IMG/VR virus record: IMGVR_UViG_2551306674_000008
From: a virus
Lineage: Duplodnaviria > Heunggongvirae > Uroviricota > Caudoviricetes
Strand: one strand, 5' to 3'
DNA length: 33,240 nucleotides
The stretch's first letter is position 1. Every line of letters begins with the position of its first letter. The translations under genes and the position numbers were made by a program. Below, piece by piece: positions 583 to 31,878 of the stretch. The notes beneath the pieces were generated by a model. It had not been told where the DNA came from. It ran no database searches and saw only the letters and a list, made by a program, of their open reading frames with translations.

Positions 583-1596
583 TTACTCTACTGTGGACAC
601 TGTGTGGACACTCTCGGCCTCAGTACCACCTCTTAGCGGATTAAGAGAAATGGCGTCCTGAAGGTACTCTGGCGCAAAATGAGCGTAAACCATAGTTTGT
701 TCAATCCGCGTGTGACCTAGTATCCGTTGTAGCGTGATAATACTTCCTCCATTAATCATGAAATGAGTGGCAAAGCTGTGCCTTAGTGCATGTGTGGCTT
801 GCCCCATTGGCAAATCCGGTTTTATTGCTTTCATTGTTCGTCTGAAGCGAGGGTAATCAGCATCAGGGAATAAAAAACCTCGTTTGTTATCCGCGATCAT
901 TTTGGCAACAGCCTCTGAGATCGGGACGGTGCGTGGTTTGTTTGTTTTCGTTTTAACAAACGTGACGCGGTTATGGATGATATTTTCTGCTTTCAAACGA
1001 GCTGCTTCTCCCCAACGTGCTCCAGTACTCAGGCAAAGAATCGCAATCTTTTTATTGTCGCCGTCAAGAGCAGCAAGCAGTAAGGCAATTTCTTCCTGCG
1101 TGAGATAGCCTGTGTTTGGTTTTTCCTCCTTAAGCCTTTTTGTCCCTCTGATAGGGTGCTCACCAAAGAATAACTCCGCTTCAATCAGGGCTGTAAACAT
1201 GCCGCTAATACATGTTAAATCACGATTGATACTCGAAGGTTTAATACCCTGACTTCTTCGGGTGGCGCAGTACTGGCTGATAAGCGATTTCGTAATTTGA
1301 AATGCGCATGGGTCATTCGTTATTTTTGTGAAGATTTCAATTTTTCCAAGATTAGATTTCCCATGCTCTTCGTGTTTACCCTTTAAATCCCACCAGATCT
1401 GTGTCAGCTCCGACAGACGTCGCTTGTCTGTTGGTTTTGATAGCCATTCTTTATTGTGGTGGTTGTACAACGTGTATTTCTCGAAAGCGACAGCTTCGCT
1501 TTTCTTATCAAACTTCCTACGGATGCGTTTTCCATTACGTCCAGTAGGGCGGATGTCCACTTCATATCGACCATCATCGAGTTTTTTGATTGCCAT
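583..1596 (-). CDS. int: tyrosine site-specific integrase (P2 Int-like, 337 aa)
   Basis: 337 aa, same length as P2 Int; C-terminal catalytic region with R...HxxR...Y-type residues (ALRHSFATHF, LGHTRIEQTMVYAH); lies immediately inside attL. Confidence 0.9.
   Translation of the reverse strand: MAIKKLDDGRYEVDIRPTGRNGKRIRRKFDKKSEAVAFEKYTLYNHHNKEWLSKPTDKRRLSELTQIWWDLKGKHEEHGKSNLGKIEIFTKITNDPCAFQITKSLISQYCATRRSQGIKPSSINRDLTCISGMFTALIEAELFFGEHPIRGTKRLKEEKPNTGYLTQEEIALLLAALDGDNKKIAILCLSTGARWGEAARLKAENIIHNRVTFVKTKTNKPRTVPISEAVAKMIADNKRGFLFPDADYPRFRRTMKAIKPDLPMGQATHALRHSFATHFMINGGSIITLQRILGHTRIEQTMVYAHFAPEYLQDAISLNPLRGGTEAESVHTVSTVE
592..610. promoter_or_regulatory. Candidate Int arm-type sites in the P' arm: two direct TGTGGACA repeats 11 bp apart
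   Basis: TGTGGACA at about 592-599 and 603-610, inside the 3' end of int; the same motif pair with the same spacing recurs in the opposite arm at 31649-31667. Confidence 0.45.
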
Positions 1597-1711
1597 CAGA
1601 AAACCCTCCGAGTGGTGTGTTTTTTGGCGACTACTAATCGCTTTTTTCGTGGTGGCTGAAATTTAGCCACCAATAGTAGGCACTTGTGATGAATATATTC
1701 ACGATGAATTG

Positions 1712-2011
1712 TTAACCAGTCTTTTGACCGGAGTGGGGCGACGTTGTTTCGTTTTGCCCAAAGTGTGCGAGAGCGGGCGCAATTTGCCCGGACTCAGGAG
1801 CGATCTGATTGGTCATGAACCATAAAGTGTATTTGGTGAATTGTGGGGTCTGCAGGATGTTCATCATGACATCTGTTGGAGGTGTTGAACGACCACTTTC
1901 ATAGTAACTCAGCGTGCCATACGGAACCCCTGTTAAATCAGCAAGTTGTTGTCTGCTCAAATACTCTGATTTTCGCATTAAGACTATCTTCTCGCTTATC
2001 GTGTTTGACAT
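1712..2011 (-). CDS. C: immunity repressor C (99 aa)
   Basis: 99 aa as in P2 C; divergent from cox; HTH-like segment LSRQQLADLTGVPYGTLSYYESG. Confidence 0.85.
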   Translation of the reverse strand: MSNTISEKIVLMRKSEYLSRQQLADLTGVPYGTLSYYESGRSTPPTDVMMNILQTPQFTKYTLWFMTNQIAPESGQIAPALAHFGQNETTSPHSGQKTG

Positions 2012-2125
2012 GGTGTTTAGATCTCAATAGTATTTAGTTTAGATGTAGATTGTTTAGTGCTTGGATGTGTGCACTAAAAGGCATTATAAGGCATTAAACG
2101 CAATTCATGAGGGCTGGAGGACGAC
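2012..2125. promoter_or_regulatory. C/cox divergent promoter-operator region (Pe/Pc switch)
   Basis: Direct repeats GTTTAGAT at about 2015-2022 and 2037-2044 (about 22 bp centre to centre) flanking a -10-like TAGTAT; second direct repeat GGCATTA at about 2080-2086 and 2090-2096; GGAGG RBS at 2114-2118 before cox. Confidence 0.55.
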
Positions 2126-2401
2126 ATGAGCAAGCAAGTAACACTCATGACTGATGCGATTCCTTATCAGGAGTTCGCAAAACTAATAGGAAAATCGACA
2201 GGAGCGGTTCGTCGGATGATCGATAAAGGAAAGCTGCCTGTAATTGATATGACCGATCCACAATCAGCTTCAGGTCGTGCAGGTGAATATTGGGTATACC
2301 TTCCGGCATGGAATAACGGACTAAAACTGGCTTATGAAAGCCGCCCTAAAGAGATTCGTGACGGCTGGTTGATGTGGTTAGGTCTCGGTGAACCACGTTA
2401 A
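2126..2401 (+). CDS. cox: Cox excisionase / repressor of Pc (91 aa)
   Basis: 91 aa as in P2 Cox; position directly after the operator and divergent from C; GGAGG RBS. Confidence 0.85.
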   Translation: MSKQVTLMTDAIPYQEFAKLIGKSTGAVRRMIDKGKLPVIDMTDPQSASGRAGEYWVYLPAWNNGLKLAYESRPKEIRDGWLMWLGLGEPR

Positions 2402-2411
2402 GGAGAACCGT

Positions 2412-2582
2412 ATGAATGAACCTCGTTGTATTGCTCAGTTACTGCGTAACGAAAGCCCCAGGGCGATTGACTTCACCATCACCCACGGTAAGGGGCGTAA
2501 GGGAATCATTATCCGCACCAAAAAACAGAGTCCGTTAAAAAAGGCTCTGACCTTTCTGAAAAGCCGGAGGGTATGGAAATGA
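2412..2582 (+). CDS. small early protein (56 aa), P2 orf78-like
   Basis: ATG at 2412 preceded by AGGAG at 2401-2405; the track ORF 2388-2582 trimmed to this start; position between cox and B. Confidence 0.6.
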   Translation: MNEPRCIAQLLRNESPRAIDFTITHGKGRKGIIIRTKKQSPLKKALTFLKSRRVWK

Positions 2583-3079
2583 CAGTGATGACGCTCAATC
2601 TCGTTGAAAAACAGCCAGCAACTATGCGCCGGATAATTGGTAAGCATCTGGCCGTCCCTCGCTGGCAGGAGACATGCGATTATTATAATCAGATGATGGA
2701 ACGCGAACGGCTAACGGTTTGCTTTCATGCGCAGTTAAAACAGCGTCACGCAACGATGCGTTTTGAAGAAATGAACGACGTCGAACGTGAACGACTGGTT
2801 TGTGCAATTGATGAATTGCGTGGGGCATTCTCAAAACGCCGTCAGGTTGGCGCAAGTGAGTATGCATATATTAGTTTTTTAACAGTCAGTCAGCGCCGTA
2901 CTTTATTTATGCACGCACGACTGACAGAAAAAGAATTTAACCAGCCATACTGGCGAATTAATGAGGAATCATGTTACTGGCGTGATGCTTTATTCCGTGC
3001 ATTACGTGAATTATTCAGTCTGTTTGAGTATGCACCGACAATTCTGACATCGGTAAAACCAGAGCAATATCTGCATTAA
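2579..3079 (+). CDS. B: replication protein B (helicase-loader-like, 166 aa)
   Basis: ATG at 2579 with GGAGG 7 nt upstream gives 166 aa, the P2 gpB length; position after cox/orf78. Confidence 0.8.
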   Translation: MTVMTLNLVEKQPATMRRIIGKHLAVPRWQETCDYYNQMMERERLTVCFHAQLKQRHATMRFEEMNDVERERLVCAIDELRGAFSKRRQVGASEYAYISFLTVSQRRTLFMHARLTEKEFNQPYWRINEESCYWRDALFRALRELFSLFEYAPTILTSVKPEQYLH

Positions 3080-3142
3080 GTAATTAACCAGAGTTTTTAA
3101 CGCACTTAATTGTGCGGGGCTTCTTTTTGCCTGGAGAAAGTC

Positions 3143-3367
3143 ATGCATACAGTTTCTGAAAATCAGTGCGGTAAATACGCATTACTGCTGCAACAGGCCA
3201 GAACCGAAGCACAGGCCGATGCAGCGACGCGCTTTTCTTCTCATCTTGACGCCATGATTCGCCACATCACAAAGGCGGAGTTATCCCGCGTGGAGATAGT
3301 CGAGCTGCTCAGTCAGGAGTCGGAAAAATTTCACAATATCGGATTGTCTCGCGGGGAGGTGCTTTGA
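3143..3367 (+). CDS. small early protein (P2 orf80-like)
   Basis: ATG at 3143 with GGAGA RBS 5 nt upstream; track ORF 3110-3367 starts on a non-ATG codon. Confidence 0.6.
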
Positions 3368-3669
3368 TGTCCTGTTCTCGTTCAGTTGTATTACTGAATA
3401 ACGCCTTAAAAATCACCGTTATGAAAAATGGCGATTTATCTCTTATTCAACTTGGTCTTGATAAAGAAAAACGCGAAATAACTGAGTCTGTTATCGCGAT
3501 TTATCAGAACGAATTAAATCTCCTGTCTGATGTGGTCAATTTACTTGTTAAACGCGCTGTATTTCACAAGCAAATCTCCTCCGTGGATGAACTGACGAAA
3601 TTAACGACAGAAATTGCCAGCTATTGCGCTGATGAATTTAAAAAACTTAACGACAAAAGGAGCTGGTAA
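3367..3669 (+). CDS. small early protein (P2 orf81-like)
   Basis: ATG at 3367 overlapping the upstream stop (TGATG); GGGAGG RBS at about 3354-3359. Confidence 0.6.
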   Translation: MSCSRSVVLLNNALKITVMKNGDLSLIQLGLDKEKREITESVIAIYQNELNLLSDVVNLLVKRAVFHKQISSVDELTKLTTEIASYCADEFKKLNDKRSW

Positions 3670-3893
3670 TGCCGGACAACGTAGATTTTATTCAGGAACA
3701 ACAGGCTGAATTACTGGAGCGTCAGATTAACGCGGCAAGGGTAAAACATTGCGGTGCTTCTGCGCTGGTTTGCGAAGAGTGTAACGCGCCAATACCTGCT
3801 GCCCGTCGTGCGGCTTATCCGTCAGCCACGCATTGTGTTTCCTGCCAGTCAGTCTTTGAAGCAAAAAACAAACATTACCGGAGAACGGCATGA
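3669..3893 (+). CDS. TraR/DksA-type C4 zinc-finger protein (P2 orf82-like, 74 aa)
   Basis: Four-cysteine motif CEECN...CVSCQ in a 74-aa protein; start overlaps the upstream stop. Confidence 0.7.
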   Translation: MPDNVDFIQEQQAELLERQINAARVKHCGASALVCEECNAPIPAARRAAYPSATHCVSCQSVFEAKNKHYRRTA

Positions 3894-4165
3894 GTATTCG
3901 TATTGAAATTGGCGAACGTTATGTCGTTACCAGTGACAGCTTTCAGTTTATTCTCCACGAGAAAAAGAGAGCGGAAAGCGGTAAAAACGCCGGTCAGGAA
4001 TGGCTGGCGGTGGTTGGTTATTATCCGAAATTAAGCCAGCTCGTTTCCGGCCTGATGCATCACGATATTCTGACCGGAAGCGCAAAGTCTTTTGCTGATT
4101 TAAACGCGCAGGTTGAGCAACTCAGCAGGCGTTGTTCAGAGGCTTTTGGCTCATATGGCCGTTAA
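3890..4165 (+). CDS. small early protein (P2 orf83-like, 91 aa)
   Basis: ATG at 3890 with GGAGA RBS; translationally coupled to the upstream ORF (ATGA overlap). Confidence 0.6.
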   Translation: MSIRIEIGERYVVTSDSFQFILHEKKRAESGKNAGQEWLAVVGYYPKLSQLVSGLMHHDILTGSAKSFADLNAQVEQLSRRCSEAFGSYGR

Positions 4166-6425
4166 AGCCTCCGGGCGTTTTGTCCCTCCGTCAGCATTTG
4201 CTGCAGGCACCGGTAAGGCGTTTACCGGTGCTTATGCATGGAACGCGCCACGCGAGGCCGTCGGGCGCGAAAGACCCCTTACACGTGACGAGATGCGTCA
4301 GGTGCAAGGTGTTTTATCCACGATTAACCGCCTGCCTTACTTTTTGCGCTCGCTGTTTACTTCACGCTATGACTACATCCGGCGCAATAAAAGCCCGGTG
4401 CACGGGTTTTATTTCCTCACATCCACTTTTCAGCGTCGTTTATGGCCGCGCATTGAGCGTGTGAATCAGCGCCATGAAATGAACACCGACGCGTCGTTGC
4501 TGTTTCTGGCAGAGCGCGACCAGTATGCGCGCCTGCCGGGGATGAATGACAAGGAGCTGAAAAAGTTTGCCGCCCGTATCTCATCACAGCTTTTCATGAT
4601 GTATGAGGAACTCTGCGATGCCTGGGTGGATGCGCATGGCGAGAAAGAATCGCTGTTTACGGATGAGGCGCAGGCTCACCTCTATGGTCATGTTGCTGGC
4701 GCTGCACGTGCTTTCAATATTTCCCCTCTCTACTGGAAAAAATACCGTAAAGGACAGATGACCACGAGGCAGGCATATTCTGCCATTGCCCGTCTGTTTA
4801 ACGATGAGTGGTGGACTCATCAGCTTAAAGGCCAGCGTATGCGCTGGCATGAGGCGTTACTGATTGCTGTCGGGGAGGTGAATAAAGACCGTTCTCCTTA
4901 TGCCAGTAAACATGCCATTCGTGATGAGCGTGCGCGCCGCCAGGCAAATCTGGAATTTCTTAAATCGTGTGACCTTGAAAACAGGGAAACCGGCGAGCGC
5001 ATCGACCTTATCAGTAAGGTGATGGGCAGTATTTCTAATCCTGAAATTCGCCGGATGGAGCTGATGAACACCATTGCCGGTATTGAGCGTTACGCCGCCT
5101 CAGAGGGTGATGTGGGGATGTTTATCACGCTTACCGCGCCGTCAAAGTATCACCCGACACGTCAGGTTGGAAAAGGCGAAAATAAAACCGTCCAGCTTAA
5201 TCACGGCTGGAATGATGAGGCATTTAATCCAAAGGATGCGCAGCGTTATCTCTGCCGTATCTGGAGCCTGATGCGCACGGCATTCAAGGATAATGATTTA
5301 CAGGTCTACGGTTTGCGAGTCGTCGAGCCACACCACGACGGAACGCCGCACTGGCATATGATGCTTTTTTGTAATCCACGCCAGCGTAACCAGATTATCG
5401 AAATCATGCGTCGCTATGCGCTCAAAGAGGATGGCGACGAAAGAGGAGCCGCGCGAAACCGTTTTCAGGCAAAACACCTTAACCGGGGCGGTGCTGCGGG
5501 ATATATCGCGAAATACATTTCAAAAAATATCGACGGCTATGCACTGGATGGTCAGCTCGATAACGATACCGGCAGACCGCTGAAAGATACTGCGGCGGCT
5601 GTTACCGCATGGGCGTCAACGTGGCGCATCCCGCAATTTAAAACGGTTGGACTGCCGACAATGGGGGCTTACCGTGAACTACGCAAATTGCCTCGCGGCG
5701 TCAGTATTGCGGATGAGTTTGACGAACGCGTCGAGGCTGCTCGCGCTGCCGCAGACAGTGGTGATTTTGCGTTGTATATCAGCGCGCAGGGTGGGGCAAA
5801 TGTCCCGCGCGATTGTCAGACTGTCAGGGTTGCCCGTAGCCCGTCGGATGACGTTAACGAGTATGAGGAAGAAGTCGAGAGAGTGGTCGGCATTTACGCG
5901 CCGCATCTCGGCGCGCGTCATATTCATATCACCAGAACGACGGACTGGCGCATTGTGCCGAAAGTTCCGGTCGTTGAGCCTTTGACTTTAAAAAGCGGCA
6001 TCGCCGCGCCTCGGAGTCCTGTCAATAAGTGTGGAAAACTCACCGGTGGTGATACTTTGTTACCGGCTCCCACACCTTCTGAGCACGCCGCAGCAGTGCT
6101 TAATCTGGTTGATGACGGTGTTATCGAATGGAGTGACCCGGAGGTCGTGAGGGCGCTCAGAGGTGCATTAAAACACGGTCGGAGAACGCCAAGTCGTCAG
6201 CAAAGAAACGGAAGCCCGTTAAAACCTCATGAAATTGCACCATCGGCCAGACTGACCCGGTCGGAAAGAATGCAAATTACCCGTATCCGCGTTGATCTTG
6301 CTCAGAACGGTATCAGGCCGCAGCGATGGGAGCTTGAGGCGCTGGCGCGTGGGGCAACTGTAAATTACGACGGGAGAAGCTTCAGTTATCCTGTTATATG
6401 TGATTGGAGAGCGTATGAATTATGA
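4155..6425 (+). CDS. A: replication initiator A (rolling-circle HUH endonuclease)
   Basis: About 756 aa from ATG 4155 (the track ORF starts at a TTG at 4113, 770 aa; P2 gpA is about 761 aa, so the start is uncertain); HUH-like motif PHWHMMLF; position after the B block. Confidence 0.85.
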   Translation: MAVKASGRFVPPSAFAAGTGKAFTGAYAWNAPREAVGRERPLTRDEMRQVQGVLSTINRLPYFLRSLFTSRYDYIRRNKSPVHGFYFLTSTFQRRLWPRIERVNQRHEMNTDASLLFLAERDQYARLPGMNDKELKKFAARISSQLFMMYEELCDAWVDAHGEKESLFTDEAQAHLYGHVAGAARAFNISPLYWKKYRKGQMTTRQAYSAIARLFNDEWWTHQLKGQRMRWHEALLIAVGEVNKDRSPYASKHAIRDERARRQANLEFLKSCDLENRETGERIDLISKVMGSISNPEIRRMELMNTIAGIERYAASEGDVGMFITLTAPSKYHPTRQVGKGENKTVQLNHGWNDEAFNPKDAQRYLCRIWSLMRTAFKDNDLQVYGLRVVEPHHDGTPHWHMMLFCNPRQRNQIIEIMRRYALKEDGDERGAARNRFQAKHLNRGGAAGYIAKYISKNIDGYALDGQLDNDTGRPLKDTAAAVTAWASTWRIPQFKTVGLPTMGAYRELRKLPRGVSIADEFDERVEAARAAADSGDFALYISAQGGANVPRDCQTVRVARSPSDDVNEYEEEVERVVGIYAPHLGARHIHITRTTDWRIVPKVPVVEPLTLKSGIAAPRSPVNKCGKLTGGDTLLPAPTPSEHAAAVLNLVDDGVIEWSDPEVVRALRGALKHGRRTPSRQQRNGSPLKPHEIAPSARLTRSERMQITRIRVDLAQNGIRPQRWELEALARGATVNYDGRSFSYPVICDWRAYEL

Positions 6426-6480
6426 GATTGTGATAAAAAGTAAATAATTAATATAATGCAATTGCTTGACTGTTTTAAAA

Positions 6481-6511
6481 GGGACAACGTAGTTGTGAAC
6501 TATATTGTCCC
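6481..6511. terminator. hairpin between convergent A and endonuclease genes
   Basis: GGGACAA ... TTGTCCC 7-bp stem with an internally structured loop; U-tract follows on the minus strand (TTTTAAAACA) and an AT-rich run on the plus strand. Confidence 0.4.
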
Positions 6512-6518
6512 GGGAGTA

Positions 6519-7574
6519 TTAATTTTTAAATATGGATTGTATGTATTCTATAGTGCTATCTTTAGCTCTGATGTCTTTTAAAGTGTTATTTATGAAATCT
6601 ATTATTCTGTCATTACTTAATAGTGGCGATAACGCATAACATGTTGTTGTGAATGTCATGACGTCACTAAAGCTTAGTGAAACACCTTTTGTCGCAGCGT
6701 TCTCAATCGCAATAGACTCATCAATATCTAAGTTTGTTGCTCTTGGCCCTTTAAGGAAGATAACTTTTGAAATCCCGGATGCAGATGCTTTTGAAACGGC
6801 GTGATTAACATCTTGATAATTAAATGGTTTGTCTTTCACTTCTATAGAAAGGAAAACTATATCATCATGATATACATCTATGTCCAGTATCTCTTTTGAG
6901 GAGCTACCGGCCTGATTGACGGGATGTGCTTTTATTATCCATCCTCTTTGTTCACCTAATAAGTGTAACGAAATTGCGGCAGCAATCGCGCATGTTTCTC
7001 CATCACAAGGATGAGATATAATATTATAAATAATCTTATGGAAATCAAAATTAATTGAGTTCGGCGTTATAACTCTATTGGTTCGCTGTAGGGTAAAATA
7101 TAATGCAATAACAAGCATTTCATAAGCTAAGATTTGGGTTGTTGCTGCATGTAATATATCAATTGAAAGTTGTTGTAAAACCTTATCATTTCCTCTGCGC
7201 ACAGGGTTATCAGAGGAGTGGAGCATGTAACGAGCTGGTTTATTTAGAAATGGCTCATTTGATGCGCCTAACTTACCCTCTAAAAATGGGCCTTCTACTT
7301 TGCCTACTATTACCGAATGACATAAACTTCTTGCATCATAGGCTCCGTCTACGGGGGCATTAGCTTGTAAAGCCAGAGGGTTTACTCTAGGGTCTGTTGC
7401 TTTAGCAAGTAAACCAGTAATAAGTATATATCTGTATGTAAGGTGGGTGCCTAAAATTACATTTTGAATGGAGACCCATTGATTATTTGTTTTGTAATCA
7501 GTTAATTTTTTTGCATCGTTGATTGCATTTATAATTACATTATAGGCTTGCTCATGATTTACTAATACTTTCAT
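6519..7574 (-). CDS. putative Type II restriction endonuclease (351 aa), unknown specificity
   Basis: AT-rich gene immediately downstream of and overlapping an HTH controller gene, divergent from a C5-methyltransferase; candidate PD-(D/E)xK core in YHDDIVFLSIEVKDK; no family assignment possible by eye. Confidence 0.6.
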   Translation of the reverse strand: MKVLVNHEQAYNVIINAINDAKKLTDYKTNNQWVSIQNVILGTHLTYRYILITGLLAKATDPRVNPLALQANAPVDGAYDARSLCHSVIVGKVEGPFLEGKLGASNEPFLNKPARYMLHSSDNPVRRGNDKVLQQLSIDILHAATTQILAYEMLVIALYFTLQRTNRVITPNSINFDFHKIIYNIISHPCDGETCAIAAAISLHLLGEQRGWIIKAHPVNQAGSSSKEILDIDVYHDDIVFLSIEVKDKPFNYQDVNHAVSKASASGISKVIFLKGPRATNLDIDESIAIENAATKGVSLSFSDVMTFTTTCYALSPLLSNDRIIDFINNTLKDIRAKDSTIEYIQSIFKN

Positions 7575-7866
7575 AGGTGTCCTTTAGTAAGATATCCATT
7601 GGTAGACCTAATCGGCTTGCAACCACCTCTAATAATTCAAATAGTTCTAAAGCATCTAATCGCCTTTCAAAGCTTTCGATTTTAGATATATCTGATTGTG
7701 ATAATCCTAGAAAAATGGCCAATTCTGACTGCGAAAGAGAAGCTTCTTTGCGTAGTTTGGTGAGAAGCTGGACTAGGCACCTGTATCTATGATCATGTAT
7801 AGTTGGTTGTCGTTTTGCCATGTGGTTTAGAAGGTGATTGATTGTGTGTCGATCCTTACCTATCAT
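7552..7866 (-). CDS. XRE-family HTH regulator, probable R-M controller (C) protein
   Basis: HTH segment LSQSELAIFLGLSQSDISKIE; overlaps the start of the downstream endonuclease gene by 23 bp, the classic C-R arrangement; no SD before either candidate start (alternative ATG at 7821), consistent with leaderless C transcripts. Confidence 0.6.
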   Translation of the reverse strand: MIGKDRHTINHLLNHMAKRQPTIHDHRYRCLVQLLTKLRKEASLSQSELAIFLGLSQSDISKIESFERRLDALELFELLEVVASRLGLPMDILLKDTYESISKS

Positions 7867-9035
7867 TGGTTTTATTCCAAAATCGAATAATTGGTGCTAA
7901 AGAAGTGAACAAAATTTCAGCGGTGAGCTTATTTACTGGGGCAGGAGGGATGGATGTCGGTTTCTCTAATGCCGGGTTCCGAACAGTTTGGGCCAATGAT
8001 ATAGATAAGGATGCATGTGATACATTTAAGCTTAATCATGAATCACCTGTTTTTTGTGGTGATATTGATGAGATGCTAAGTGAATTGTCTGGGCTGAAAA
8101 ATATAGGTTGTGTTTTTGGTGGGCCTCCATGCCAAGGATTTTCTGTGGCAGGGAAAATGGACGCTCATGATCCACGTAGTAAGCTGGTTATGTCATTCAT
8201 GCGGGCGGTGGATATAATTCAACCAGAATGCTTTGTTATGGAGAATGTTAAGGCTTTAGCACAGTTGTCCAAATTTGAACCAGTTAGGTGTGAACTGTTT
8301 AAGATGGCTGAAAAGTCAGGCTATCGTTCAGCCTTGCTGGTGCTGAATTCTAAAGATTTTGGCGTTCCTCAGAATAGGGAACGTATGTTTTTTATAGGGT
8401 TTCGTTCCGAAAATGATGTGAAACGAGTTGAGGTGGCGATAAAAAAATACCAATATCTTTCGCCCACAGTTGGTGAGATTATTCGGCCTTTAGGGCGAGC
8501 GGGTAATCCAAACAATTCAAGAGTCTGTAATGCAAGGATTACAAATGCTGCTAAGCCAGTATTACGGAAGTCACCTTACGCGGGAATGATGTTTAACGGG
8601 CAGGGAAGACCAATTAACCCGAATGGGTATGCTTCAACTATAGCTGCTTCTATGGGGGGGAATAGGACACCAATTATTGATGAAGAACACCTTTATGATG
8701 GCTCAACAAGTTATGTTGAGACTTATCATAATCATCTAATGAATGGTGGTGAGCCAAAAGATATGCACGATGTACCTAGTCGTTTACGTCGACTAACGAT
8801 AGATGAGGCTCTTTTGATTCAAACATTCCCGAGTAATTATGTCTTTGTGGGGAAAAATTCGTCAATTTGGCGTCAGATAGGGAATGCTGTGCCTTGTAAA
8901 TTGGCGCAGGCTGTTGCTGCAGGGGTTTTGGATGTCCTTACTGGTAAAACTATTAATGTTCAAAAGAGTCAAACAGAGTTGAGTTTGAATTCGAAAAACG
9001 GATCACATTTTCAAACCGATGGATGCAGAATTTAA
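7842..9035 (+). CDS. DNA (cytosine-5)-methyltransferase
   Basis: Motif I LFTGAGGMDVGF, motif IV GGPPCQGFS, motif VI FVMENV, motif VIII QNRERMFFIGF, motif X GNAVP; TTG start at 7842 with AAGGTG 5 nt upstream (start uncertain; in-frame TTG 7866 and GTG 7905 also possible). Confidence 0.9.
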   Translation: MCVDPYLSLVLFQNRIIGAKEVNKISAVSLFTGAGGMDVGFSNAGFRTVWANDIDKDACDTFKLNHESPVFCGDIDEMLSELSGLKNIGCVFGGPPCQGFSVAGKMDAHDPRSKLVMSFMRAVDIIQPECFVMENVKALAQLSKFEPVRCELFKMAEKSGYRSALLVLNSKDFGVPQNRERMFFIGFRSENDVKRVEVAIKKYQYLSPTVGEIIRPLGRAGNPNNSRVCNARITNAAKPVLRKSPYAGMMFNGQGRPINPNGYASTIAASMGGNRTPIIDEEHLYDGSTSYVETYHNHLMNGGEPKDMHDVPSRLRRLTIDEALLIQTFPSNYVFVGKNSSIWRQIGNAVPCKLAQAVAAGVLDVLTGKTINVQKSQTELSLNSKNGSHFQTDGCRI

Positions 9036-9152
9036 CATTGCTGCATGAGTTTGCATCTTGAAATCATAAGTTGTACTGCTTGGCTTGACCAGAATTGATG
9101 TGGGTAAGAAGTGGTTATGCACCCGCATTAAAACCGCCCCATTAAGCGGGCG

Positions 9153-9171
9153 GGCGAGGCGGGGAAAGCAC
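9153..9171. other. cos site (19-nt cohesive-end sequence GGCGAGGCGGGGAAAGCAC), uncleaved in the prophage
   Basis: Exact match to the P2 cohesive-end sequence as I remember it, in the expected position upstream of the Q/P packaging genes. Confidence 0.7.
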
Positions 9172-9340: not shown

Positions 9341-10375
9341 TCAGCCGTTGTCAGTGTCCAGTGAGTAGTTTTTAAAGCGGATGACCTCCTGACCGAGCCA
9401 GCCGTTTATCTCGCGGATCCTGTCCTGTAGCGGGATAAGCTCATTGCGGACAAAGACCTTTGCCACTTTCTCAATATCACCCAACGACCCGACGTTCTCC
9501 GGCTTGCCGCCCATCAACTGAAAGGGGATGCGGTGCGCGTCCAGCAGGTCAGCGGCGCTGGCTTTTTTGATATTAAAAAAATCGTCCTTCGTTGCCACTT
9601 CACTGAGCGGGATAATTTTAATGCCGTCGGCTTTCCCCTGCGGGGCATAGAGAAACAGATTTTTAAAGTTGTTGCGGCCTTTCGACTTCACCATGTTTTC
9701 GCGAAGCATTTCGATATCGTTGCGATCCTGCACGGCATCAGTGACGTACATGATGTATCCGGCATGTGCGCCGTTTTCGTAATACTTGCGGCGAAACAGC
9801 GTGGCCGACTCATTCAGCCAGGCAGAATTAAGGGCGCTGAGATATTCCGGCAGGCCGTACAGCTCCTGATTAATATCCGGCTCCAGCAGGTGAAACACGG
9901 AGCCGGGCGTGAAGGCTGTCGGCTCGTTGAAGGACGGCACCCACCAGTAAACATCCTCTTCCACACCACGGCGGGTATATTTTGCCGGTGAGGTTTCCAG
10001 TCTGATGACCTTACCGGTGGTGCTGTATCGCTTTTCCAGAAACGCATTACCGAACACCAGAAAATCCAGCACAAAGCGGCTGAAATCCTGTTGCGAAAGC
10101 CACGGGTGCGGGATAAACGTTGAAGCCAGAATATTGCGTTTGACGTAAATCGGTGAGCTGTGATGCACGGCAGCACGCAGGCTTTTTGCCAGACCGGTAA
10201 AGCTGACCGGTGGCTCATACCATCTGCCGTTACTGATACACTCGACGTAATCCAGAATGTCACGGCGGTCGAGTACCGGCACCGGCTCACCAAAGGTGAA
10301 TGCCTCCATTTTCGGGGCGCTGGCGGTCATTGTTTTTGCCGCAGGTTGCGGTGTTTTCCCTTTTTTCTTGCTCAT
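9341..10375 (-). CDS. Q: portal protein Q (344 aa)
   Basis: 344 aa, same as P2 gpQ; upstream of and translationally coupled to the terminase large subunit. Confidence 0.9.
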   Translation of the reverse strand: MSKKKGKTPQPAAKTMTASAPKMEAFTFGEPVPVLDRRDILDYVECISNGRWYEPPVSFTGLAKSLRAAVHHSSPIYVKRNILASTFIPHPWLSQQDFSRFVLDFLVFGNAFLEKRYSTTGKVIRLETSPAKYTRRGVEEDVYWWVPSFNEPTAFTPGSVFHLLEPDINQELYGLPEYLSALNSAWLNESATLFRRKYYENGAHAGYIMYVTDAVQDRNDIEMLRENMVKSKGRNNFKNLFLYAPQGKADGIKIIPLSEVATKDDFFNIKKASAADLLDAHRIPFQLMGGKPENVGSLGDIEKVAKVFVRNELIPLQDRIREINGWLGQEVIRFKNYSLDTDNG

Positions 10376-21013: not shown

Positions 21014-23092
21014 ATGAGCACAAAATTCAGAACCGTTATCACCACTGCCGGTGCAGCAAAGCTGGCAGCGGCAACCGCACCGGGAGGGCGGAAGGTCAAC
21101 ATTACCACGATGGCCGTCGGGGATGGCGGTGGTAAATTGCCTGTCCCGGATGCCGGACAGACCGGGCTTATCCACGAAGTCTGGCGACATGCGCTGAACA
21201 AAATCAGCCAGGACAAACGAAACAGTAATTATATTATCGCAGAGCTGGTTATTCCGCCGGAGGTGGGCGGTTTCTGGATGCGTGAACTTGGCCTGTACGA
21301 TGATGCGGGAACGCTAATTGCCGTGGCGAACATGGCCGAAAGTTATAAGCCAGCCCTTGCCGAAGGCTCAGGGCGTTCGCAGACCTGCCGCATGGTCATC
21401 ATCGTCAGCAGTGTGGCCTCAGTGGAGCTGACCATTGACACCACAACGGTGATGGCAACGCAGGATTACGTTGATGACAAAATTGCAGAACATGAACAGT
21501 CACGACGTCACCCTGACGCCTCGCTGACCGCCAAAGGTTTTACTCAGTTAAGCAGTGCGACCAACAGCACGTCTGAAACGTTCGCCGCAACACCAAAAGC
21601 GGTAAAGGCCGCGTATGACCTTGCTAACGGGAAATATACCGCACAGGACGCCACCACAGCGCGAAAAGGCCTTGTCCAGCTCAGTAGTGCCACCAACAGC
21701 ACGTCTGAAACGCTCGCCGCAACACCAAAAGCGGTAAAAGCAGCATATGACCTTGCTAACGGGAAATACACTGCACAGGATGCCACCACAGCACGAAAAG
21801 GCCTTGTTCAGCTGAGTAGCGCCATCAACAGCGATTCTGAAACGCTGGCTGCAACACCAAAAGCGGTGAAGTCTGCCTATGACAATGCTGAAAAACGTCT
21901 TCAGAAAGATCAGAACGGTGCGGATATTCCGGGAAAGGATACTTTCACGAAAAATATCGGTGCCTGTCGTGCTTATAGCGGTGCTTTGAGCACTGAAGCC
22001 GGAAACTGGACAACCGCTCAGTTTATTGACTGGCTAGAGTCTCAGGGAGCCTTTAATCATCCCTACTGGATGTGCAAGTGTTCCTGGTCATACGGTAATA
22101 ACAAAATTATTACCGATACTGACTGTGGGACTATTCATCTTGCAGGTTGCGTGATTGAGGTTATGGGCGTTAAAGCTGCAATGACCATTCGTGTGACCAC
22201 TCCGAGTACATCAAGCGGTGGTGGTACCACCAGTGCGCAATTCACGTATATCAATCACGGAGCTGATTATGCGCCGGGCTGGCGACGCGACTACAATACG
22301 AAAAATAAGCAACCGGCTTTTGCATTAGGGAAAACAGGAAATACGGTTGCAAATAATAAAGCGGTAGGATGGAACTGGGATAGTGGTGCTTATTGTGCAC
22401 AGGATGGCGGAGCATCAAAAATGGTGCTGCATTTTTACACGGGTGAGGGAAGTTGTCCGGCAATGCAGTTTCTTGTGGATTATAAAAACAGGGGGATTTT
22501 TTACAGGTCGGCACGTGATGGGTATGGATTTGAGGCTGACTGGTCTGAGTTTTATACAACATCACGAAAGCCAACACCTGCGGATATTCTTGCTCTGGCA
22601 TTATCAGGCGGAAGCATGTCAGGCAGCATAAAATTTATCAATGATGCCTTCCTGATTTGGGAAAGAAACACTGACTGGGCGAAAATTGGATTTAAAAATG
22701 ATTCAGATGCTGATTCTGACTCATACATGTGGTTTGAAACTGGTGATAATGGCAATGAATATTTTAAATGGCGCATCAGGTCTGGCAGCACAACAAAAGA
22801 CCTGATGACGCTTAAGTCTGATGCACTACGGGTTACCGGGCAGGTGATACCATCAAATTTCAGCAATTTTGACTCCCGCTATGTCCGGGATATCCGGCTT
22901 GGTGGTGCCGCCACATACAAACCTGCGAACAATGGCATGACATGGACACATCAGGCACCGTCCGGGTGTGTATATACCGGCATTATTGTTCAGGATACCG
23001 GCTCAAACTCTGCCGATAACATTGGTGGCGTATATTACAGACCGGTTCAGAAATACATTAACGGGACGTGGTACAACGTGGCGCAGGTATAA
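21014..23092 (+). CDS. H: tail fiber protein H (692 aa) with internal tandem repeats and a divergent C-terminal receptor-binding region
   Basis: Conserved P2 H-like N-terminus and extreme C-terminus (PIQKYINGTWYNVAQV-like end); middle and distal part unlike what I recall of P2 H; 23 aa longer than P2 H. Confidence 0.85.
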   Translation: MSTKFRTVITTAGAAKLAAATAPGGRKVNITTMAVGDGGGKLPVPDAGQTGLIHEVWRHALNKISQDKRNSNYIIAELVIPPEVGGFWMRELGLYDDAGTLIAVANMAESYKPALAEGSGRSQTCRMVIIVSSVASVELTIDTTTVMATQDYVDDKIAEHEQSRRHPDASLTAKGFTQLSSATNSTSETFAATPKAVKAAYDLANGKYTAQDATTARKGLVQLSSATNSTSETLAATPKAVKAAYDLANGKYTAQDATTARKGLVQLSSAINSDSETLAATPKAVKSAYDNAEKRLQKDQNGADIPGKDTFTKNIGACRAYSGALSTEAGNWTTAQFIDWLESQGAFNHPYWMCKCSWSYGNNKIITDTDCGTIHLAGCVIEVMGVKAAMTIRVTTPSTSSGGGTTSAQFTYINHGADYAPGWRRDYNTKNKQPAFALGKTGNTVANNKAVGWNWDSGAYCAQDGGASKMVLHFYTGEGSCPAMQFLVDYKNRGIFYRSARDGYGFEADWSEFYTTSRKPTPADILALALSGGSMSGSIKFINDAFLIWERNTDWAKIGFKNDSDADSDSYMWFETGDNGNEYFKWRIRSGSTTKDLMTLKSDALRVTGQVIPSNFSNFDSRYVRDIRLGGAATYKPANNGMTWTHQAPSGCVYTGIIVQDTGSNSADNIGGVYYRPVQKYINGTWYNVAQV
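21536..21890 (+). repeat. about 2.7 tandem copies of a 132-bp (44-aa) repeat inside H
   Basis: Unit LSSATNSTSET(F/L)AATPKAVKAAYDLANGKYTAQDATTARKGLVQ repeated at about 21536, 21668 and 21800; nucleotide identity between copies is very high. Confidence 0.85.
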
Positions 23093-23623: not shown

Positions 23624-23862
23624 CTTGTATGAACTCTAGTGGGAGCTTACATATCTATGGCACAGAGTAAAGCCTAATCTGACAGTCCGCTCTGTGCCAG
23701 AAGCGGACATTGCGGCGTTACGGCACGTTAGGTCAGATATTTAAATGCACATGGTCCGCTTGTGGCGGAAGGATACTTACAAGAGTTGGTGAGAGATAGT
23801 AAAATCAATATGAAAATTAAAATTCGGCAATAATTCCTGATATAGTCATCTTAATGAACATA

Positions 23863-23887
23863 AAAACTATCACAATAGGATAGTTTT
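23863..23887. terminator. AT-rich hairpin at the 3' end of the minus-strand cargo operon
   Basis: Perfect 9-bp stem AAAACTATC / GATAGTTTT with a 7-nt loop, just downstream of the stop at 23905; flanked by T-rich sequence on both strands. Confidence 0.3.
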
Positions 23888-23904
23888 TATGTCATACTTG
23901 TTAG

Positions 23905-24600
23905 TTAATCACTTAAGGAATGAAGTGAGGCTCGTTGTGCAGAGGTTAAGCTAAGGAGGATTTTTTCTCGATACTCAGGTGCAAAGGAAAAGAAAACATC
24001 AGGAAAAATTCTTATGATAGTTGATATCATAGTCTTAACCACCTTATCAATCACCTTCGAAATATTATCTATTTTAACCAAGTCTATTTCGGGAAAAACA
24101 TTTAAAGCTTTTATGTGAGCCATTTCTTTTACAGTAGCTGTATGTACGTGACTGCATAACGAAGAGTATTCAGCTTTTAAAGTTTCATGTAGTAGAGGAT
24201 TTTTTTTGAAGACAGGATGTTCCCCAGTTTGTTCAATTACCTTAAACAATGATTTTTCTTCAAGTATTGAAGGATCTAGTAAGCAACCTATTGATTTTAA
24301 AGAATTTTCAATATAACTTCGCATCATTAGATTTGCTGGTTTGTATGCACCATTTATAACCATAAACATAGCTGTACCAAGGTCAGATGAAGCTTCTTGC
24401 AATCGCTCCAATGAGTTGGCGTCTATTTTCTCCTTGGAGAAATGATACAAACAGTAAACAAGGCACATAAAAGAATAATATCTCTTATGTATCATGCTTA
24501 TTTTCCCTCTTGAGTTAATATTCTCGAAAACATTTTTTAATTTATATTCAGAGAAATAAGTAACTAACTCAGTGAAATCGCTGTTTACTTCTCTCGACAT
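23905..24600 (-). CDS. hypothetical protein (231 aa), third gene of the ParA-like operon; function unknown
   Basis: Long ORF in a strongly AT-rich island; 2-bp gap to the upstream gene; no motif recognisable by eye. Confidence 0.65.
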   Translation of the reverse strand: MSREVNSDFTELVTYFSEYKLKNVFENINSRGKISMIHKRYYSFMCLVYCLYHFSKEKIDANSLERLQEASSDLGTAMFMVINGAYKPANLMMRSYIENSLKSIGCLLDPSILEEKSLFKVIEQTGEHPVFKKNPLLHETLKAEYSSLCSHVHTATVKEMAHIKALNVFPEIDLVKIDNISKVIDKVVKTMISTIIRIFPDVFFSFAPEYREKILLSLTSAQRASLHSLSD

Positions 24601-24602
24601 TG

Positions 24603-25109
24603 TTAGTCCTTATTGAATATATCTTTTATAACTTCATTCCAGTCATATATCTCATTTTGAGCGCTAGAAAGGTTCTTCCTCTCTTTTATTCTACTCAAAA
24701 CTTGAGGGTTATTTGACATTGAATTGATAATATTATAAGCCTTACCTAAATCGGATGAGTTTTTCTCGTGAACGTCACACACGATTATGCCGATCATTTC
24801 CTCTCTAGATCTTTTTTCAGGCCTGCTGATTTCGATACCTAACATGCGTGCAAAATCATCTATATCTTTATTTTTTTGGAAGAGATCTTTGTCTAATAAA
24901 ATCCTCGGAAGATACCCAACAAGGAAACCTTTAATATCATTTTTTTTGGACTTTGAATTTCTTTCGTTAACTTCTAAATTATCAGTATAACTATCTTGAA
25001 GTAATTCAATAAAGTTGATTCTTGATAATTTTTTTGAAATAAAGGAAAACTCCTCTAAAAAGTTTAACAGTTGCTTAATTTCTTTTGAGTTATTTTTTTT
25101 GTCAGTCAT
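24603..25109 (-). CDS. hypothetical protein (168 aa), second gene of the ParA-like operon; lysine-rich, function unknown
   Basis: ORF overlapping the upstream ATPase gene by 4 bp (translational coupling); AT-rich; no recognisable motif. Confidence 0.65.
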   Translation of the reverse strand: MTDKKNNSKEIKQLLNFLEEFSFISKKLSRINFIELLQDSYTDNLEVNERNSKSKKNDIKGFLVGYLPRILLDKDLFQKNKDIDDFARMLGIEISRPEKRSREEMIGIIVCDVHEKNSSDLGKAYNIINSMSNNPQVLSRIKERKNLSSAQNEIYDWNEVIKDIFNKD

Positions 25110-25936
25110 AAGTCACCTACTCTAGAGAGAAGTTCGTCAGTAATTTTAGACAGCGAAAACTTCATATCCTCATCCGTTAAATTGTTAATAAATAAGCCTC
25201 TTGTTTGATTTCTTGCCAACTCAGTACGTTTGCTCAAATATGATTTAAAGATCTTATTACGCCAACGTTTTTGATTATTGAAGTAACGAAGACTTTCCTC
25301 ATATAAATTACTATTACCTTCAACCATATTAAAAACTATGCCCGCACATTCAATCTTAAGATCGAAATTTTCTCTCTTCTCATTTATAATGCTATCTAAT
25401 AGATCGATACCAGTGATCGAAAGAGGATCGGGTTTGGCTGGAATGAGGTAATAATCAGATGCAATTAATGCGCTGGACATCCAAACTGATGGGGTTGGTG
25501 GGGTATCAATTATGACATAATCATAGTCATTTTCATGGATTTTAAGAAAGCGTCTAAGCTTGTTTTCTATCCCTTCTCCTGGTTTCATTTCAATTTTATA
25601 TAGCCCAAGGCTTCCGGGAACAATGTGAAAATTATCATTTAATTGAATTGGTGTTATATCGGCTAATTCTTTAGGTGTGTTAACTAAAGGACCAGTCATT
25701 GTAGATAGTCGAATTTTTGAACTATAAAAAATATCACATATGCTATCGCCTCCGCTTTTCATATGTGCAACATATTTGCTTGTATCCATTACACATTGCG
25801 TTGCGTTAAATTGTGGGTCGATATCTATTAATAATATTTTTTGCCCAAGTTTATCTGAAAGATGATTAGCAATATTGGTAGCCAATGTTGACTTACCAAC
25901 GCCACCTTTCATATTGATTAAGCTAATAACTTTCAA
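25106..25936 (-). CDS. ParA/MinD/Soj-family P-loop ATPase (276 aa)
   Basis: Deviant Walker A MKGGVGKST near the N-terminus; LLIDIDPQ and VIIDTPP motifs typical of ParA/Soj; TTG start with AGGAG 8 nt upstream; AT-rich. Confidence 0.85.
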   Translation of the reverse strand: MKVISLINMKGGVGKSTLATNIANHLSDKLGQKILLIDIDPQFNATQCVMDTSKYVAHMKSGGDSICDIFYSSKIRLSTMTGPLVNTPKELADITPIQLNDNFHIVPGSLGLYKIEMKPGEGIENKLRRFLKIHENDYDYVIIDTPPTPSVWMSSALIASDYYLIPAKPDPLSITGIDLLDSIINEKRENFDLKIECAGIVFNMVEGNSNLYEESLRYFNNQKRWRNKIFKSYLSKRTELARNQTRGLFINNLTDEDMKFSLSKITDELLSRVGDL

Positions 25937-26176
25937 TCTTCTTGCTCCTGTTTTGATTAACGCTAAGCTTTTTCATCAGCATTGAAATTTAACATGTGTT
26001 TTACAAACTTATGTCTTATCACTACCTTATCATTTTTTACATACACCATAAATATTTTTAACTAAAAATTTTTGGTTTTCAACCTGAAATCTTTATCTTT
26101 AAAAACAAAACATTACAATATTTTTAGTAAGATGCCTTACCTAATGTAATGTGAATGGCTCAATTTTGATTAACAC
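25937..26176 (-). promoter_or_regulatory. AT-rich promoter/operator region of the ParA-like operon
   Basis: Imperfect direct repeats TTTTGATTAAC(G/A)C-TAAGCT at about 25951-25969 and 26164-26183; nested palindrome CATTACA...GTAAG-ATGC-CTTAC...TGTAATG at about 26111-26151; A5T5 palindrome near 26074. Confidence 0.45.
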
Positions 26177-26443
26177 TTAAGCTATGTTAATAATGGTTTT
26201 GTAAGTGTGATGAGGGTTCCATATGAAGAAGTGATTTCCCGAACAATACAACATGAATATCATCCTCGTAGTCGGTGTTTCTTCACATGAACTCTGTCGC
26301 AAATACGCTATATGAAACGTGGCAAGATGAATGTACCTGAGGTTATCAATCTTAAACCGCTTGAGAGTACGCCCTGATCCTGCCCGTTGATAAACTAACT
26401 GCATTGTTTGTAATGCTTCATCGGTGGTGAGAACAAGTTTCAT
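26177..26443 (-). CDS. hypothetical small protein (88 aa); possibly a remnant or the first gene of the cargo
   Basis: ORF on the same strand upstream of the ParA-like operon; moderately AT-rich; poor SD spacing before the ATG; the 3' end runs into the upstream repeat copy. Confidence 0.25.
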   Translation of the reverse strand: MKLVLTTDEALQTMQLVYQRAGSGRTLKRFKIDNLRYIHLATFHIAYLRQSSCEETPTTRMIFMLYCSGNHFFIWNPHHTYKTIINIA

Positions 26444-26538
26444 ACTTCCGCTTCTCGCTCAAAGCAGACTGTCAGATTTGATAGCGTTTTGGCTATGTAA
26501 GTTGCCAGTTGGGAAATGAGTGAGTACAAATCAGGACA

Positions 26539-26567
26539 GGCGGGCGAATTGCCCGCCTTTTCTTTAT
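26539..26567 (+). terminator. rho-independent terminator upstream of FI
   Basis: GGCGGGC-GAATT-GCCCGCC hairpin followed by TTTTCTTTAT on the plus strand. Confidence 0.6.
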
Positions 26568-26661
26568 CTGTTGTTTCATCCACTGACCAGCCAGGTCAAA
26601 TAGCGTCTCATGCACTGCCCAACAGAAAATAGTTGCACCCATTAACCACGGAGTTAAACGG

Positions 26662-27537
26662 ATGAGTGACTATCATCACGGCGTGCAGGTGCTGGAGATT
26701 AACGACGGCACCCGCGTCATTTCCACTGTATCCACTGCCATTGTCGGCATGGTCTGCACGGCCAGCGATGCGGATGCGGAAACCTTCCCCCTCAATAAAC
26801 CGGTGCTGATTACCAATGTGCAAAGCGCAATTGCAAAGGCCGGTAAAAAAGGCACGCTGGCGGCATCGTTGCAGGCTATCGCCGACCAGTCAAAACCGGT
26901 CACCGTTGTCGTGCGTGTGGAAGACGGCACCGGCGACGACGAGGAAACGAAACTCGCGCAGACCGTTTCCAATATCATCGGCACCACCGACGAAAACGGT
27001 CAGTACACCGGACTGAAAGCCCTGCTGGCGGCGGAGTCGGTAACCGGTGTTAAACCTCGCATTCTCGGTGTGCCGGGACTGGACACCAAAGAGGTGGCTG
27101 TTGCACTGGCATCAGTCTGTCAGAAGCTGCGCGCTTTCGGGTATATCAGCGCATGGGACTGTAAAACCATTTCCGAGGTGAAAGCCTACCGTCAGAATTT
27201 CAGCCAGCGTGAGCTGATGGTCATCTGGCCGGATTTCCTCGCATGGGATACGGTCGCCAGTACCACCGCCACCGCGTATGCCACCGCCCGTGCGCTGGGC
27301 CTGCGCGCTAAAATCGACCAGGAGCAGGGCTGGCATAAAACGCTGTCCAACGTCGGGGTAAACGGTGTTACCGGCATCAGTGCCTCTGTATTCTGGGATT
27401 TGCAGGAGTCCGGCACCGATGCTGACCTGTTGAACGAGTCAGGTGTCACAACGCTGATTCGCCGTGACGGTTTCCGCTTCTGGGGTAACCGTACCTGCTC
27501 TGATGACCCGCTGTTCCTCTTTGAAAACTACATATAA
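26662..27537 (+). pseudogene. FI: tail sheath gene FI, 3'-truncated (291 codons of about 396)
   Basis: N-terminal 290 aa read as a normal P2 sheath up to ...RRDGFRFWGNRTCSDDPLFLFENY, then I and a stop; the downstream sequence continues in another frame as tape-measure protein. Confidence 0.8.
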
Positions 27538-31707: not shown

Positions 31708-31734
31708 AAAAAATAAGCCCGTGTAAGGGAGATT
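31708..31734. repeat. attR core, AAAAAATAAGCCCGTGTAAGGGAGATT
   Basis: Exact 27-bp copy of 477-503. Confidence 0.85.
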
Positions 31735-31878
31735 ACACAGGCTAAGGAGGTGGTTCCTGGTACAGCTAGCATTTTATGGGTTATGTTTTTCAGCGAAACG
31801 GATGATAACCTTAATAAATGCAGCTGTATGTGATCGGTTTCTAAGAATTTTCCATCCGGGAAAAATAATCGAAATTAA

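Follow-up and report, generated by a model that had tools for sequence, protein, structure and literature searches.

A restriction-modification cassette, very probably EcoT38I, in the gpA-gpQ hotspot of a P2-like Escherichia coli prophage

The stretch of DNA analyzed here, hereafter referred to as the window, comprises 33,240 nucleotides (nt) of a virus of the Caudoviricetes (IMG/VR record IMGVR_UViG_2551306674_000008) and is identical to sequence of E. coli strain S19-141 (NZ_CP075640.1; human stool, Zurich). Between the P2 genes A and Q it carries a cassette of three genes, encoding a restriction endonuclease (R), a small controller (C) protein whose gene overlaps that of R, and a divergently transcribed C5-cytosine DNA methyltransferase (M) (Table 1). 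It is almost certain that this cassette represents the EcoT38I Type IIP restriction-modification (R-M) system, carried as cargo of the gpA-gpQ (tin/old) hotspot of a P2-like prophage that is located next to cyaR and trhP (yegQ). The cassette is already characterized, as the EcoT38I system, its controller, the crystal structure and the P2 context have all been published, and the observations described below concern gene identities, family, fold, conserved residues, a conserved operator, genomic position and distribution.

The cassette and its gene products

In the GC profile of the window, the region from 6501 to 9000 exhibits values of 0.36-0.41 versus 0.49-0.55 in both flanks, which bears out an earlier, sequence-only reading of this DNA in which the gap between A and cos was described as AT-rich. 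That reading had also recognized a Type II R-M cassette under C control in this gap, in place of tin/old, and all three open reading frames and their flanks were found where it had put them. Homology between the window and PhiR44_1, an intact P2-like phage without the cassette, ends at 6378 and restarts at 9112, and phage records match the queried interval from 9112 only, from which an accessory island of approximately 6379-9111 was delimited. No record with the cassette was found in the phage collection, where the sole match was a segment of 230 bp next to cos. The cohesive-end sequence of P2 occurs once in the window, at 9153-9171. The interval between gpA and gpQ adjoining cos is a documented defense hotspot of P2-like phages, which harbors old and tin in the reference phage P2, and the window conforms to its published definition, i.e., variable cargo between genes A and Q, adjacent to cos (PMC9122126).

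Table 1. Coordinates of the cassette, its control region and the borders of the hotspot, as positions in the window
Feature	Position	Strand	Basis
P2 gene A (replication endonuclease), left border of hotspot	4155..6425 (or from 4113; PGAP start 4155)	+	Prokaryotic Genome Annotation Pipeline (PGAP) annotation of identical/near-identical records
Low-GC accessory island (cassette and short spacers) in gpA-gpQ hotspot	6379..9111	.	Homology break versus PhiR44_1, low GC
ecoT38IR, Type IIP restriction endonuclease, SacI family, 351 amino acids (aa)	6519..7574	-	RE_SacI profile, 7e8r identity
ecoT38IC, controller (C) protein, HTH_3, 89 aa	7552..7821	-	HTH_3, PADLOC, conserved start
Promoter-like site for M, TTGATT-17-TATCAT, predicted transcript start ~7873 on operator	7838..7866	+	Consensus scan, 9/12 matches
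Putative C-box/operator, 19-bp palindrome TTATTC-GATTTTG-GAATAA between C and M starts	7872..7890	.	Inverted repeat, conservation
ecoT38IM, C5-cytosine DNA methyltransferase, 376 aa	7905..9035 (from GTG 7905)	+	PF00145, TIGR00675, Q83VT0 identity
AAA codon replacing TAA stop of strain 64 and Q83VT0; M extended by 13 aa	8994..8996	+	Alignment of window with strain 64
P2 cos cohesive-end sequence GGCGAGGCGGGGAAAGCAC	9153..9171	+	One exact match, 0 expected
P2 gene Q (portal), right border of hotspot	9341..10375	-	PGAP annotation

The R protein was found to match the Pfam family RE_SacI (PF09566) with an E-value of 1.9e-76 (258 bits, for a cut-off of 19.3), covering profile positions 4-276 of 276, and to match the PADLOC Type II restriction endonuclease model with 830 bits over 351 of 351 positions. 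It is furthermore identical in 349 of its 351 residues (99.4%, full length) to chain A of PDB entry 7e8r, the 'EcoT38I restriction endonuclease', and PF09566 is carried by all 120 homologs of R among the matches listed. The sequence-only reading had regarded the family and the specificity of this nuclease as open questions, which they no longer are since the cassette corresponds to the EcoT38I system. A specificity that differs from that of EcoT38I, for example the strict GAGCTC of SacI, is highly improbable: the family is named after SacI, and its members at 40-79% identity probably do differ in specificity, but only two substitutions in 351 residues of R and one in 363 residues of M separate the proteins of the window from the reference proteins. 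Of note, NCBIfam contains no model matching R, while PHROGs holds an exact family, phrog_36794 (831 bits), that is labeled 'unknown function', and annotation pipelines relying on these libraries would therefore miss a characterized restriction enzyme.

Conserved residues were located in an alignment of 28 SacI-family proteins that are 38-79% identical to the query. The string YHDDIVFLSIEVKDK, corresponding to residues 235-249 of R, had been put forward as a PD-(D/E)xK-like motif; it is indeed present, but only its ExK half is right, because D237 and D238, the aspartates of 'HDD', vary in the alignment and were rejected as catalytic residues. The charged residues that are invariant in and near this string are D231, D233, E245, K247, D248 and K249, so that the motif read from the alignment is (L)D-I-D...E-V-K. 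An AlphaFold2 model derived from the same alignment, with a predicted local distance difference test (pLDDT) score of 90.7, places D233 in the strand formed by residues 232-236 and both E245 and K247 in the strand formed by residues 239-247. The predicted structure thus displays the hallmarks of the PD-(D/E)XK superfamily, i.e., an acidic residue on one strand and (D/E)-x-K on the next within a restriction-endonuclease-like alpha/beta core, in agreement with the position of SacI/PF09566 in published classifications (PMC2441816, PMC3424549). Its RE_SacI membership, this fold and the near-identity to R.EcoT38I dispose of the possibility, raised at the outset, that the 351-residue protein belongs to a non-nuclease family.

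The divergent gene was correctly recognized by the sequence-only reading as encoding a C5-methyltransferase with canonical motifs, as profile searches returned PF00145 (E-value 1.7e-66) and TIGR00675 (E-value 5.3e-59), and the motifs FTGAGG (I), PPCQ (IV), ENV (VI), QNRER (VIII) and GNAVP (X) are readable in the translation. The reading frame is open from TTG 7842 (7842-9035, 397 aa), which is the start called by PGAP; this start was set aside in favor of GTG 7905, which REBASE-derived data use. From GTG 7905, M is identical in 362 of 363 positions to UniProt entry Q83VT0, a cytosine methyltransferase of 363 residues filed under Peduovirus P2. Both length classes of M are common in the protein cluster, and the longer class also occurs in Salmonella. 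An orphan methyltransferase, the other outcome that had been held to speak against an R-M system, is contradicted by the pairing of M with an endonuclease in every relative examined.

The start codons of R (7574) and M (7905) are positioned head to head, 330 nt apart, with C within the interval, an arrangement that reportedly agrees with the spacing of R and M in the original EcoT38I system. The genes can moreover be tied to the REBASE entries by their codons: Table 3 of PMC6456624 gives, for EcoT38I, AUA as the 15th codon of R and GGG as the 12th and 15th codons of M. The window agrees in all three positions, with ATA in R and, solely when the M start is taken as GTG 7905, both GGG codons in M. 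The organism label and length of Q83VT0, together with this codon table, suggest that the entry is M.EcoT38I itself. EcoT38I is present in the REBASE-derived tables of PMC6456624 and PMC2632904, the structure of the endonuclease has been solved (7e8r), and the title of Kita, Kawakami and Tanaka 2003 (J Bacteriol 185:2296) ties the EcoT38I R-M genes to P2 prophages.

Control region and proposed mechanism

The sequence-only reading had assigned the small gene upstream of R to a controller with a helix-turn-helix (HTH), which holds: C matches Pfam HTH_3 (E-value 1.8e-6; Xre-type) and, weakly, the PADLOC model Control_protein (E-value 2e-4), and its open reading frame (7552-7866, minus strand, 104 aa) overlaps the start of R by 23 nt. 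The sequence ATGGCAAAA, marking a C start at ATG 7821, is kept in seven loci. The alternative start at ATG 7866, which would give the 104-residue protein, was rejected, as the stretch upstream of ATG 7821 contains indels, is not conserved and carries a TAG in locus L013. C.EcoT38I is one of the REBASE controllers for which Sorokin et al. (PMC2632904) predict a conserved upstream motif.

To examine the control region, the intergenic sequence between M and C was aligned for the window and six relatives with R identities of 52-79%, from Enterobacter ludwigii, Pseudescherichia, Yersinia aldovae, Serratia fonticola, Pseudoalteromonas xiamenensis and one metagenomic contig. The layout of a divergent M and co-oriented C and R (M<- / C-> R->) is found in all six. 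The palindrome between the C and M starts is the sole strongly conserved block of the alignment, with 15 of 20 columns invariant versus six of 81 in the remainder of the intergenic region. Furthermore, both of its arms change together in three relatives (L010, L011 and L012), to ATATTC...GAATAT in Yersinia and Serratia and to ATATGC...GCATAT in Pseudoalteromonas, which is the behavior expected of an operator for a dimeric HTH protein. The palindrome is therefore likely to be the C operator, judging by its conservation and symmetry. A resemblance to the 35-bp, GTG-centered double box of the C.PvuII type, as described in PMC2632904, was sought in the palindrome and not found. The cassette thus combines the attributes of a C-protein-controlled R-M system, i.e., a small Xre-type HTH gene directly upstream of and co-oriented with R, and a conserved symmetric site upstream of it.

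These features are compatible with the following mode of action. M.EcoT38I would methylate, at C5, a cytosine of the recognition site in the DNA of both host and prophage, and R.EcoT38I, for which D231/D233, E245 and K247 are of catalytic type, would cut unmethylated sites on incoming DNA. C would be translated from the same transcript as R and most likely bind the palindrome as a dimer, where it would activate the leftward C/R transcript and occlude the divergent M promoter; this occlusion is proposed because the predicted M transcript start, 32 nt upstream of GTG 7905, lies on the operator. In a new host cell, M would consequently be made early and R with the usual delay. In this scheme we infer operator occupancy, the promoter assignments, the direction of regulation, activity in S19-141 and the recognition sequence.

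Recognition sites and the state of the prophage

Several points weigh against the identification of the cassette as an EcoT38I system that operates in S19-141 as outlined above. The alleles of the window differ from the reference, with I148 and I288 in R in place of T and L, V177 in M in place of A, and 13 additional residues at the C-terminus of M. EcoT38I reportedly recognizes and cleaves G(A/G)GC(C/T)^C (GRGCYC), with cleavage blocked by the cognate C5 methylation of cytosine that M.EcoT38I presumably introduces; a text search of the literature for GRGCYC returned no passage on EcoT38I. C is reportedly an activator of R and a repressor of M. The promoter assignments for M are consensus matches only, of which the -10 block is partly conserved across the relatives. 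Finally, the frequency of the recognition site in the window, discussed next, lends the identification no support.

Depletion of the prophage in the cognate motif had been suggested as a check on the presence of an active system. GRGCYC occurs once in the window (at 31942, in the host gene trhP), while 27.3 +/- 5.1 sites are expected from shuffled sequences and 15-21 from Markov models of order 2-4; the SacI site GAGCTC was likewise observed once, versus 6.0 expected. However, six P2-like phages without the cassette (loci L002-L007) are equally depleted, with 0, 0, 2, 2, 4 and 5 GRGCYC sites versus 15-21 expected, and the depletion is therefore unusable as support. When the seven genomes are pooled, 14 sites are observed versus 111 expected (an observed-to-expected ratio of 0.13), which ranks GRGCYC only 14th of 335 palindromic hexamer patterns. 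GGCGCC (1 versus 165 expected), CGGCCG (4 versus 110) and CAGCTG (7 versus 166) are avoided more strongly, and CCATGG, CCGCGG and GCCGGC also rank ahead of it. The avoidance of GC-rich hexamer palindromes is thus a general property of the P2 lineage that is independent of the R-M cargo carried. This count is an example of a misleading statistic, in which a cognate site found once for some 27 expected would seem telling were the cassette-free relatives not alike. It also follows from the lineage-wide avoidance that other P2-like phages would offer EcoT38I few sites to attack, so that it would be of little use against them.

The prophage itself is damaged. Relative to PhiR44_1, 1,656 bp are missing at ~27532 (region 26447-29650), a deletion due to which the prophage cannot build tails. 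FII (tube) and E/E' are lost completely, along with the 3' end of FI (sheath) and the initial 329 nt of T (tape measure); in the PGAP annotation, the sheath gene is a pseudogene. The deletion junction is present in one of 5,426 complete E. coli genomes, namely that of S19-141 itself, so that we rejected the notion of a general tail defect among carriers of the cassette. The lesion is private to this strain, unless, as is conceivable, it reflects an error of assembly. The tail-fiber gene H (21014-23092) is also annotated by PGAP as a pseudogene ('internal stop'), yet its open reading frame in the window is uninterrupted (692 aa); since homology to the H gene of PhiR44_1 breaks down after 21619, H may be a variable or shortened fiber gene rather than a true lesion.

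It could be argued from this damage that the cassette is silent or inactive in S19-141, owing to the altered C-terminus of M or the substitutions in R, and is a decaying passenger of a decaying prophage. The prophage has at least one inactivating lesion, M has lost its normal stop codon, and the M gene is split in strain FORC_082, one of the E. coli carriers. Nevertheless, such inactivity is unlikely, as all three open reading frames are intact and R is nearly identical to the crystallized enzyme, while an intact R accompanied by a dead M would be lethal. In addition, the 397-residue M allele is present on more than 300 contigs, including those of Salmonella, and so common an occurrence speaks for an allele that is both tolerated and functional.

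The window contains a second low-GC island (GC ~0.32) at the G-FI (Z/fun) position (23700-26446), with three open reading frames on the minus strand. One of these (25106-25936) encodes a ParA/AAA_31 ATPase, whereas the other two (24603-25109 and 23905-24600) yielded no match in Pfam or PADLOC and correspond to phrog_12497 and phrog_12265, both of 'unknown function'. Of the 5,426 E. coli genomes, 133 contain the island at >=99% identity, and none of the phage records does. It may represent uncharacterized hotspot cargo.

Distribution, retention and comparison with known systems

A 2.9-kb interval covering the cassette was found at 98.8-100% identity in 20 of the 5,426 complete E. coli genomes. 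The PGAP product names are the same in all 20, namely 'restriction endonuclease, SacI family', 'helix-turn-helix domain-containing protein' and 'DNA cytosine methyltransferase'. Hundreds of contigs, including those of Salmonella enterica, carry exactly this R protein or members of its 90% cluster. With regard to the chromosomal location, the right boundary of the prophage directly adjoins the gene for the small RNA CyaR/RyeE (31711-31796, minus strand; Rfam RF00112, 100.7 bits), which is followed by trhP/yegQ, and these two genes mark the attachment site used. In several complete E. coli assemblies (H1, H5, H11, H19 and many more), the first position coincides with the start codon of P2 gene A, and position 4155 of the window is position 1 of NZ_CP075640.1. 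An automated 'fix start' rotation presumably mistook the prophage replication gene for the chromosomal start, which is a curiosity of annotation rather than of biology.

More distant relatives occupy related, though not always identical, positions. In Pseudescherichia sp. (L009, GCA_032004355.1), an M-C-R cassette (1211-6395) that is 65% identical to that of the window is located next to the yegQ/cyaR homologs. All that flanks it of a P2 prophage is 63 bp of the cos region and 160 bp of gene A, and the cassette seems to have persisted beyond the prophage by which it arrived. In Yersinia aldovae (L010), a 60%-identical cassette (3317-6349) is situated between ogr and att-proximal sequence of a P2-like prophage and not between A and Q, indicating that this cassette lineage uses more than one site in P2-type genomes. 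Taken together with the occurrence of these genes in E. coli, Salmonella, Serratia, Yersinia and Pseudescherichia, at R identities of 57-99%, it may tentatively be suggested, though on balance we would not favor it, that SacI-family C-R-M cassettes are long-term, co-diversifying passengers of P2-like prophages across the Enterobacterales, which use multiple sites and can outlive the prophage. Were this so, the cassette rather than the phage would, through addiction or defense, be the unit retained at the cyaR/yegQ attachment site.

The same observations bear on the purpose of the cassette. C-controlled Type II systems are the classic case of addictive behavior studied by Kobayashi and colleagues, and the cassette may accordingly be, in the main, a selfish addiction module that stabilizes itself and the surrounding prophage DNA by post-segregational killing, rather than an anti-phage defense. 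Retention of a tail-defective prophage fits this explanation, as does the survival of the Pseudescherichia cassette at the same cyaR/yegQ site with only the cos and gene A remnants beside it. We nevertheless consider it rather doubtful as the main role: the deletion is private to one strain, so that defectiveness is not a property of the carriers, addiction and defense can coexist, and anti-phage activity has been validated for many cargoes of the gpA-gpQ hotspot (Rousset et al. 2022, PMC9122126).

As a discovery the cassette carries little weight, not least because PGAP already names its genes, and its value is that of a clean, annotated example of an R-M system in the P2 hotspot. The additions made here are modest, namely the corrected catalytic residues, a phylogenetic footprint of the putative operator, and the realization that site avoidance is uninformative in this lineage; the 19-bp putative operator with its symmetric substitutions is a small but testable addition to the published material consulted on C.EcoT38I.

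The closest known system is EcoT38I of E. coli TH38 (PDB 7e8r/7edb; Q83VT0), with which the cassette shares R (349/351) and M (362/363) almost completely, the overlap of C with R, the head-to-head R and M starts 330 nt apart, and its placement between A and Q/cos of a defective P2-type prophage. The differences are allelic only (I148 and I288 in R, V177 in M, and the 13 residues added to M by TAA>AAA), and the FI-T deletion is private to S19-141. SacI of Streptomyces achromogenes (GAGCT^C), the namesake of PF09566, belongs to the same family and PD-(D/E)XK class according to the profile match, and its site, GAGCTC, is a subset of GRGCYC; EcoT38I, unlike SacI, reportedly accepts R and Y at positions 2 and 5.

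Similarity is also seen to EcoO109I and its controller C.EcoO109I, a C-controlled Type II R-M system with a palindromic C operator that lies next to cos in the hotspot of an E. coli element of the P2/P4 family. The operator of that system, reportedly CTAAG-N5-CTTAG, differs from the TTATTC-N7-GAATAA of the present cassette, as do the enzymes. Moreover, EcoO109I is carried by a P4-like satellite (Kita et al. 1999, as cited in PMC9122126), whereas the EcoT38I cassette is carried by a helper phage. Lastly, the cassette resembles old and tin of P2 and other gpA-gpQ cargo in its locus, its low GC content and its presumed role in inter-viral competition or defense, and differs from old and tin in that it would act by restriction-modification and not by abortive infection or exclusion.

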